Source: Prorocentrum cordatum
Lineage: Eukaryota
DNA: 64,000 nt
Direction of reading: 5' to 3'
Assembly: GCA_963575745.1 (NCBI GenBank)
Contig: CAUYUJ010000026.1
Span: 310,001-374,000 of the forward strand
In this document: piece after piece, positions 31,942-33,406 of the stretch
How positions within the stretch are numbered: position 1 is the first letter of the stretch
How the letters are laid out: every line of letters begins with the position of its first letter
Notes under the pieces: model-generated
Database searches by the model: none
What the model saw: only the letters and a program-made list of their open reading frames with translations
Told to the model about the DNA's origin: nothing
Made by a program: the position numbers and the translations under genes

Positions 31942-33406
31942 GTCGGGCCTGTCCCTCTACAGGGGGAATATTCATGAATAGCCAAAAATACAGGACGATG
32001 TTTGGACTATTTTTGAGTAGTTTGGGGGTATTCTTCTGAGTATTTTTTATTGGAGAGGCCTGACGGCCGGTGCCGCCGACCCTGATCGAAAGGGCTAGGA
32101 GTGAGGGGAGGAAGCGGAGGATGATGATGATGATGATGATGATGATGATGATGATGATGATGATGATGATGATGATGATGATGATGATGATGATGATGAT
32201 GATGATGATGATGATGATGATGATGATGATGATGATGATGATGATGATGCTGATGATGATGATGATATGATGATGATGATGATGATGATGGTGATGGTGT
32301 GGTGAGGTTAGGATGATGATGATGATGATGATGCTGATGGATGCGAGATGATGATTGATGATGAGATGTTGTGATATAGAAAGAAGGAAGGAGGAGTAAG
32401 GAGGATGAGAAGGAGGAGGAGAGGAGGAGGAGAAAAGGGAGGAGACAGGAGGAGCAAGGAGCAGGAGGAGGAGGAGGAGGAGGAGGAGGAGGAAGTGCAT
32501 CCTTTGTGTGCCCGCTCGAAGAAAGTGCGCCCCGGGAGTGTGATATTCTGACTTGGGACGTGCTCCCGGAAGAGGAAAAAGTGCATCTCGGGCGTGCCCG
32601 CTCGAGGAAAATGCGCCCTAGGGGGGTGGTATTTTGACTCGGGGCCCGCTCCCGGGACGCCTCTGCGGGAGGCCTCTGCGGGAGGAGGAGTAGGAGGAGG
32701 AGAAGGAGGAGGAGGAGGAGGAGGAGGAGGAGGAAGAGGAGGAGGAGGAGGGGGAGGAGGAGGAGAAGGAGGAGAGGAGCAGGAGGAGGAGGAGGAGGAG
32801 GAGGAAAAGGAGGAGGAGAAGGAGGACCAGGAGGAGGAGGAAGTGCATCCCGTGCGTGCCCGCTCGAGGAAAGTGCGCCCCGGCGGGCGTCGTATCTGCC
32901 CCGGCCCCCCCCCCCCGGTCTCCCTCCCTGCGTGTAAGACGAAGCCGTAAGGGCTCCCCTTCGACTCCCCTACGACGTCGGTTAGGTTTAATTTTTCGCT
33001 TTGGATATAGCGCGCCGTGAGTAGGAGAGCCCACCTGGGGGGGTGGGGAGAAACGGAGACGGACGGAGACGGAACGGGAGGAACGGGAAGGGGACGAGTC
33101 GAACGGAGAAGCCTCACACACGCCGACAGGGTCGGAGATTTTTTTTTCGTTTTTTCGTGTTTTTCGTTCTTTTTTTTCGTTTTTTTTTTTTATTCTTTTT
33201 TTTCGTTTTTTCGCCTTCGGTTTTTTTTTTCTTTTTTTCTTTTTGTTTCCTTTTTTTTTTTTTGCGCGCTTGAGGAGGAGAGCCCTGGGAGGGGGGGAGA
33301 ACGGAGACGACGGAGACGACGAGTCGAACGGAGAAGCCCCTCACACACGCCGACAGGGTCGGCGGATTTTTCGCCCACAATCTCCCTGTAGGGGGACACG
33401 CCCGAC
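31942..33406. mobile_element. MITE family B copy interrupted by a 1.3-kb nested insertion
   Basis: GTCGGGCCTGTCCCTCTACAGGG ... CCCTGTAGGGGGACACGCCCGAC. Removing 32050-33366 leaves 148 bp, matching the other copies. Confidence 0.8.
32050..33366 (-). mobile_element. Solo non-autonomous Helitron/Helentron-like element carrying (GAT)n, (GGA)n and T-rich tracts
   Basis: Plus-strand left end TTGGAGA-GGCCTGACGGCC-GGTG-CCGCCGACCCTG and right end CACACGCCGA-CAGGGTCGGCGG-A give a 12-bp subterminal IR with hairpins. Inserted between A (32049) and T (33367) without duplication. Confidence 0.75.

Follow-up and report, generated by a model that had tools for sequence, protein, structure and literature searches.

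A 1317-bp insert nested in a family-B MITE: probable identity as a non-autonomous Helitron2-type element

Results

The nested element and its host MITE

Within the stretch of 64,000 nucleotides analysed here (the window), a reading of 31800-33600 together with substring checks places a 1317-bp insert, oriented on the minus strand, inside a family-B MITE, which it splits into a long left arm and a short right arm (Table 1). The two arms carry the inverted ends of the MITE (GTCGGGCC.../...GCCCGAC), and joining them restores a MITE of 148 bp, compared with 149 bp and 150 bp for the two uninterrupted copies of the window. The nesting and the size of the restored MITE had been claimed in an earlier note on this DNA, and both are borne out. 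The end features named there, namely a 5' TC, a 5' hairpin, a 12-bp subterminal inverted repeat and a 3' hairpin 7 nt from the end, are likewise all present.

On the element strand (minus), the 5' end begins with TC and runs into the hairpin CGCCGAC-CCT-GTCGGCG, and the 3' end terminates in ...TCTCCAA. The arms of the 12-nt inverted repeat are 100% complementary and form the sole inverted repeat of at least 11 nt within 32040-33380; a repeat of 12 nt was reached in one of 20,000 shuffles of the end windows. Both end hairpins are short, and their energies alone are unremarkable when compared with shuffled sequence: 7 of 200 shuffles gave an equally good 5' hairpin, and 56 of 200 gave an equally good 3' hairpin (-7.1 kcal/mol, z -0.4). 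The position of the 3' hairpin is kept across six aligned copies, which represent five independent loci.

Table 1. Positions of the nested element, its host MITE and related features in the window
Feature	Positions	Strand	Remarks
MITE left arm	31942..32049	+	108 bp; aligns to the uninterrupted copies 1736-1884 (149 bp) and 13901-14050 (150 bp)
MITE right arm	33367..33406	+	40 bp; multi-copy in four public runs
Nested non-autonomous element	32050..33366	-	1317 bp; boundary register uncertain by -1 to +2 nt (ATT common to both junctions)
5' asymmetric terminal inverted repeat	33354..33365	-	element-strand sequence CCGCCGACCCTG; 1 nt from the 5' end
5' hairpin CGCCGAC-CCT-GTCGGCG	33348..33364	-	overlaps the 5' repeat arm; -8.6 kcal/mol, z -2.0
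3' subterminal repeat arm	32073..32084	-	23 nt from the 3' end
3' hairpin GGCC-GTCA-GGCC	32057..32068	-	7 nt from the end (32050-32056)
ATT, left junction	32049..32051		
ATT, right junction	33366..33368		same ATT as at the left junction, hence the register ambiguity
(GAT)n microsatellite cargo	32120..32368		
(AGG)n-type microsatellite cargo	32382..32493		
(GGA)n microsatellite cargo	32681..32841		
Internal second copy of the 5' end region	33000..33139	-	from alignment; hairpin and repeat arm degenerate; 19-mer with 3 mismatches at 33121-33139
T-rich tandem tract	33139..33267		129 bp; separates the inner from the outer copy of the 5' end
Second independent copy of the family 3' end (left end on +)	33743..33777	-	
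Head-to-tail array of a related family, same end architecture	19517..29406	-	about 9 units of 908-1750 bp; orientation as in the nested element
Variant left end	29407-29439		TCCTAGT, GGCC-TTC-GGCC, CATC, CCGCCACCGTG

The interior of the element is rich in simple repeats. Trinucleotide runs occupy 522 of its 1317 bp (40%), and tandem repeats overall occupy 679 of 1317 bp (52%); the cargo, which the earlier note had described as mostly microsatellite, is thus repeat-rich, with repeats making up about half of it rather than most. In addition, the 5' terminus of the nested element is present twice in direct orientation, the inner, degenerate copy being followed by the T-rich tract (33000-33267).

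Read on the minus strand, the T-rich tract becomes an A-rich tract of about 125 nt that follows a GC-rich head of 95 nt. A SINE-like retroposon could be read into this order, with the A-rich tract (33139-33267) serving as its tail. However, the tract is internal and lies near the 5' end of the element, not at the 3' end, where a conserved hairpin-bearing sequence is found instead; a long target duplication is missing, and the two ends form an exact inverted repeat. The retroposon reading is therefore extremely improbable.

Recurrence of the element ends

Both ends of the element are found again at other places. In the window, a 28-nt pattern of the left end has two matches (32057 and 33750; 0.00 expected), the latter within the second independent copy of the 3' end, for which no partner 5' (right) end was found within the window. 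Similarly, the 19-mer of the right end has a match at 33348 and a degenerate one at 33121, inside the element itself (0.06 expected).

A metagenome scan with an exact 20-mer of the left end, inside which conservation is given by construction, returned 47 loci. In four of the 47 (L016, L032, L024 and L037), the hairpin and tail are present upstream; L024 and L037 are one locus, so that three of these loci are independent, and none of the four extends to the other end of its element. The remaining 43 of 47 loci are chance matches without family context. When six left ends are aligned, all of them share TATTG, and no relationship is left in the flanks outside it, which places the left boundary within those five bases and within 2 nt of the coordinate given earlier. 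All aligned copies end in CAA on the element strand.

In one metagenome locus (L032, 1-1530), both the flank and the interior are AT-rich, and the 37-nt end is nearly the same as in the GC-rich window. This similarity may reflect spread across very different genomes. The same locus also bears a GC-rich palindromic insert at about 76-200.

The right end recurs in contigs of four public runs (X1, X2, X3 and X20). The depth climbs toward 33342-33366 in the four runs, and many contigs cover 33308-33366 in each of them; among the 32 contig pieces listed, 18 stop at 33367-33372, that is, 1-6 nt into the T-run past A33366. Two contigs of X20 pass, after GGCGGAT and GGCGGATT, into unrelated flanks that are not MITE. 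When both ends are considered, the left flank ends in TA in six of six independent left ends and a T follows four of four right ends, which makes TAT constant at the joint. In viral contigs, the right-end motif was found at 12 loci, all of them chance matches (0 of 12 with family context), and the left-end motif at 0 loci. Among genome contigs, an 18-mer of the right end matched at least 120 loci, and family context was present in none of the 120 listed, which are chance matches in GC-rich bacteria.

These findings support the view that the nested element is a separate mobile unit, both ends of which recur independently of the MITE. The family had been called mobile in the earlier note; its ends do recur in other contexts, and the nesting is a valid demonstration of that mobility. 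The recurrence also bears on whether a transposon is present at all, because the insert could instead be a local expansion, repair filler DNA or an assembly artefact within the MITE. About half of the insert consists of simple repeats, and the locus lacks cover in the four runs (the depth at 33422-33720 is zero), both of which would suit such an origin. Nevertheless, the presence of both ends elsewhere with unrelated flanks, and an end architecture held in common with an array family in the same window (described below), make it very improbable.

The insertion join and its register

The three MITE copies of the window are diverged, with a mean column identity of 58% and arms that overlap by three alignment columns. 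They are thus too diverged to place the join to the base, and the join was settled by the public runs, with 33262-33720 being compared with the contigs of X1, X2, X3 and X20, whose word share with the window is at most 0.23. As the unique flank has zero depth in all four runs, the join is read from other copies of the MITE. For contigs that first match at 33366 (79 in X1, 55 in X2 and 13 in X3), the consensus of the loose ends reads ...GGGTATTTTTT; it is also given as ...GTATTTTTT, followed by the aligned ATTTTTCG. No indel is listed for the uninterrupted MITEs of X1, X2 and X3 at 33367-33372 of the aligned A33366-TTTTTCG, and the restored site, GTATTTTTT-A-TTTTTCG, matches these uninterrupted copies letter for letter. 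Consequently, exactly 1317 bp have been added, and there is no net gain or loss of target bases. The check proposed in the earlier note, a MITE consensus aligned across 32049/33367, therefore gives a gap-free join without any extra base in the contigs of X1, X2 and X3, and it does not fix the exact breakpoint.

Copies of the family-B MITE are very numerous in each of the four runs; they end at 33406 or 33410 and are followed by unrelated flanks, and a target duplication of the MITE itself would be TTA/TAA-like. At position 33378, the window has C and most MITE copies of the public runs have A. One 72-nt contig of X1 spans 33345-33410, from the right end of the element into the MITE arm, with seven differences; it may represent the same nested joint in another data set.

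Since ATT stands at both junctions, the start of the insert can be written as 32049, 32050, 32051 or 32052, with the flanks T|A, A|T, T|T and T|T, respectively, and these four equivalent registers give the same restored site. A target duplication of 1-3 bp (A, AT or ATT), with an element 1-3 nt shorter, is formally possible and fits that site equally well. As a result, the proposal of a clean A|T integration without target duplication stands insofar as removal of 1317 bp restores the MITE consensus; with A|T being one of four registers, it is plausible but unproven.

A clean insertion between A and T is what a canonical Helitron (Helitron1/HLE1) would produce, and several observations agree with it. 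The element strand begins with TC and the net target change is nil; moreover, if the A|T register is taken, four of four right-end copies (the nested end, the inner end and the two X20 contigs) have A as their 5' flank, and six of six independent left ends (five aligned loci and the array unit at 19517) have T as their 3' flank. However, the 3' end is ...CCAA, and every copy ends in CAA, where a canonical Helitron would have CTRR. In addition, a 12-nt inverted repeat and a 5' hairpin are assigned to Helitron2 and not to Helitron1 where PMC3627910 sets out these types, and the 3' hairpin lies 7 nt from the end, compared with the 10-12 nt given in PMC5148889. The A|T flanks themselves belong to one of four equivalent registers. 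The element is thus not a canonical Helitron as judged by the lack of a CTRR end, and on balance that identity is highly improbable.

A related head-to-tail array

A search of the window for variants of the repeat arm brought up a head-to-tail array of a related family (Table 1). The array contains seven exact end-to-end concatemer joints, GGCGGA|TCGAAGA (21266/7, 22235/6, 23498/9, 24692/3, 26213/4, 27517/8 and 28425/6), and in each of them the right end ...CAGGGGGCGGCGGA is directly followed by TCGAAGA-CGCC-TAC-GGCG-AATCA-CCGCCGCCCCCTG. The first left end of the array (19517) adjoins genomic flank (...GCCGTTA|TCGAAGA...). At an eighth joint (29406/29407), the last right end abuts a variant left end, for which no matching right end was found within the window.

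The array and the nested element have one layout in common, consisting of T, six bases, a hairpin with a 4-bp stem, four or five bases, the repeat arm, the interior, the other arm in a hairpin, and A. At the array joints, the arm is spaced from the hairpin by A, T and 6 nt, just as it is when the two ends of the nested element are placed together. This constant spacing suggests that the A and T at the joints are part of the element rather than duplicated target, and the joints favour rolling-circle copying without target duplication. The three registers without duplication all yield the same circular joint, so the array does not fix the register. Unequal crossing-over is another route by which arrays can grow.

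Four end variants retain a 5' hairpin, each with its own stem (CGCCGAC/GTCGGCG, CCCCTG/CAGGGG, CCCCTGC/GCAGGGG and CCCCGC/GCGGGG). The interiors of the array units consist of 10-11-bp repeats of the CTTGGGGCC type, which are also found in the copy at 33743 and in L024/L037.

Two further arrangements of the ends were observed. Inside the array, at 22904-22950, a right end runs into ATCGAAGAC and, after that, into its own reverse complement, which gives a head-to-head palindromic joint, possibly a strand-switch product. At 53703-53744, there is a candidate solitary right end of a third variant, composed of CACACG, the hairpin CCCCGC-AA-GCGGGG and GTCGGCGGA, followed by TCACC; its partner arm was not found.

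The array also bears on a cut-and-paste origin. The insert could be a DDE transposon that duplicates a fixed target of 2-3 bp (AT/ATT), with the element proper at 32052-33365 or similar. The ATT on both sides of the insert, the AT at every left and right end seen and the inverted repeat itself are all in line with such a transposon, although the same bases flank every copy and every array joint. On the other hand, the repeat is asymmetric: one arm is terminal, whereas a conserved tail with the hairpin separates the other, 23 nt in, from its terminus, so inverted repeats do not occupy both extreme termini as the TIRs of a DDE element would. Furthermore, the seven array joints keep exactly one A-T, which would need repeated insertions into the duplication left by the previous copy, and no transposase was found among the ORFs of the window. 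We therefore consider a DDE transposon improbable.

Coding content and genomic setting

The search for a RepHel or any other transposase in the window found none: of 191 ORFs of at least 140 aa, 0 have a Helitron-related Pfam match, and WD40 is the only family matched. The sole clear coding signal is a WD40-repeat gene that lies in pieces at 58994-60529 and has one unnamed protein that is 95% identical. The named relatives of its ORF at 58994-59923 come from the dinoflagellates Polarella, Symbiodinium, Effrenium and Pyrodinium, and the host is probably a dinoflagellate. Another direct repeat of the window is an identical 37-nt string at 50607-50643 and 51030-51066, 423 bp apart.

Discussion

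Identity of the element

The ends, the join and the array together make it likely that 32050-33366 is a non-autonomous Helitron2-type (HLE2) rolling-circle transposon, which runs 5' to 3' on the minus strand and is inserted in a T-rich stretch of the MITE without net target change. As Helitron2 is described in PMC3627910 (Bao & Jurka 2013), a distance of 0-2 bp separates the 5' repeat from the end, and part or all of this repeat is taken up in a 5' hairpin; the 3' repeat precedes a hairpin, about 20-30 bp before the 3' end, the repeat length is 8-15 bp, and the 5' base is T. The account in HELIANO (PMC11417382) has the same layout, with a repeat length of 11-18, and names DUF6570 as a marker of HLE2. 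In the nested element, the 5' arm is separated from the end by 1 nt if the A|T register is taken, and by 0-3 nt when all four registers are allowed; it overlaps a hairpin that recurs, with other stems, in three related end variants. The 3' arm is 23 nt from the end with a hairpin between the arm and the end, the repeat is 12 nt long, and the 5' T is present. The proposal that the element inserts like a Helitron rather than a DDE transposon or a retroposon accordingly holds on its negative side, where the asymmetric ends speak against a TIR/DDE element and a retroposon; on its positive side, the likeness is to Helitron2/HLE2 and not to a canonical Helitron.

The target differs in strand. HLE2 insertions are described as lying between T and T, or after TTTT, on the element strand (PMC3627910, PMC11417382, PMC5148889). 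Here, the terminal-repeat end has the T-run of the target beside it on the opposite strand, the element strand accordingly reads AAAAA|TC, and two of the four registers are T|T on the plus strand only.

Proposed mechanism

By analogy with published Helitron work, the movement of the Helitron2-type element may be pictured as a single-strand transfer. A RepHel enzyme encoded elsewhere would nick the 5' tip, at the hairpin that holds the terminal inverted repeat, and would peel off one strand. The subterminal repeat arm and the small 3' hairpin would act as the stop signal for the transfer, and the single strand would then be pasted into a TAT-containing target. If the stop failed, head-to-tail concatemers would result, as in the array of the related family (19517-29406); tandem copies are a known product of rolling-circle copying (10.1101/2021.06.02.446622).

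A more speculative extension is that the family belongs to a distinct Helitron2-like lineage of marine protists. Three traits could mark such a lineage: a TAT target with the T-run on the opposite strand, a 37-nt 3' end that is nearly unchanged between GC-rich and AT-rich (L032) hosts, and genomic arrays that keep the rolling-circle joint. We hold this to be rather unlikely. If it were true, the opposite-strand target rule would imply a mirrored polarity of integration, and the 37-nt end shared by GC-rich and AT-rich hosts would imply recent horizontal spread.

Meaning of the nested insertion

A nested insertion, read against an "empty site" supplied by the family consensus, is a clean way to define the ends of a transposon. 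In the present case, it reveals a repeat-laden element of 1.3 kb as a discrete mobile unit that leaves the number of target bases unchanged. To our knowledge, dinoflagellate transposons are poorly catalogued. Elements of the Helitron2 type and their head-to-tail arrays form part of the repeat load of this GC-rich, probably dinoflagellate, genome, and the end motifs, with repeat arms of the form CCGCCG(A/C)CCC(C)TG, can be used as seeds to look for the family and its RepHel partner across a whole genome. The type is already known, and this case leaves the known working of such elements unchanged. No description of this element family was found in the literature on Helitrons, including that on Emiliania and dinoflagellates (Repbase was outside the search). 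A search of 12 of the 14 supplementary files of PMC3627910 and of 10 supplementary files of PMC4067079 did not find the 12-nt repeat.

Comparison with known systems

Canonical Helitrons have in common with the nested element the 5' TC, a joint compatible with A|T, a 3' hairpin near the end and tandem head-to-tail copies; they also insert without target duplication, with which the unchanged number of target bases here would agree. As characterized in PMC3627910 and PMC11417382, however, they have a CTRR 3' end and neither terminal inverted repeats nor a 5' hairpin, and the nested element is the opposite on each of these points.

The Helitron2 elements of Chlamydomonas (PMC3627910) are closer. 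They have the same short asymmetric terminal repeats, with the 5' arm at the tip in a hairpin and the 3' arm about 20-30 bp from the end with a hairpin after it, as well as the 5' T and a T-rich target. The same account of Helitron2 includes short non-autonomous families without target duplication; the nested element also shows no net change, but it has ATT at both joints. The Chlamydomonas elements insert after TTTT on their own strand, whereas here the T-run is at the same end on the other strand, with TAT constant. They also differ from the present case with regard to the RepHel partner, which was not found in the window, and to the host, which is probably a dinoflagellate here.

The Helentron-derived HINE/DINE-1 elements, as portrayed in PMC4067079, have similar subterminal inverted repeats of 12-15 bp, a 3' stem-loop, internal microsatellites or tandem repeats, T-rich sites and T strings at the boundaries. 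The internal repeats correspond well to the 52% of tandem repeat in the nested element. On the other hand, the 3' repeat of HINE lies 38-60 bp from the end, compared with 23 nt here, a distance outside the HINE range; the HINE target is a TT dinucleotide on the element strand, and its partners bear an endonuclease domain.

FoHeli1 and FoHeli2 of Fusarium oxysporum, which are presented in PMC5148889 as non-canonical, Helitron2-like elements, are autonomous and 5-6 kb long, whereas the nested element is non-autonomous and has 1317 bp. Between their 3' arm and the 3' end, ATATTTT, there are 38-51 bp, and the arm of the nested element lies 23 nt from ...CCAA. Nevertheless, they begin with the same TC and a hairpin that holds the repeat arm, and they have a subterminal 3' arm. 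They insert next to TNAT, a T-A-T-like motif, and a one-base ambiguity of register like the present one is reported for them; FoHeli1 and FoHeli2 are the nearest published parallel for the target of the nested element.
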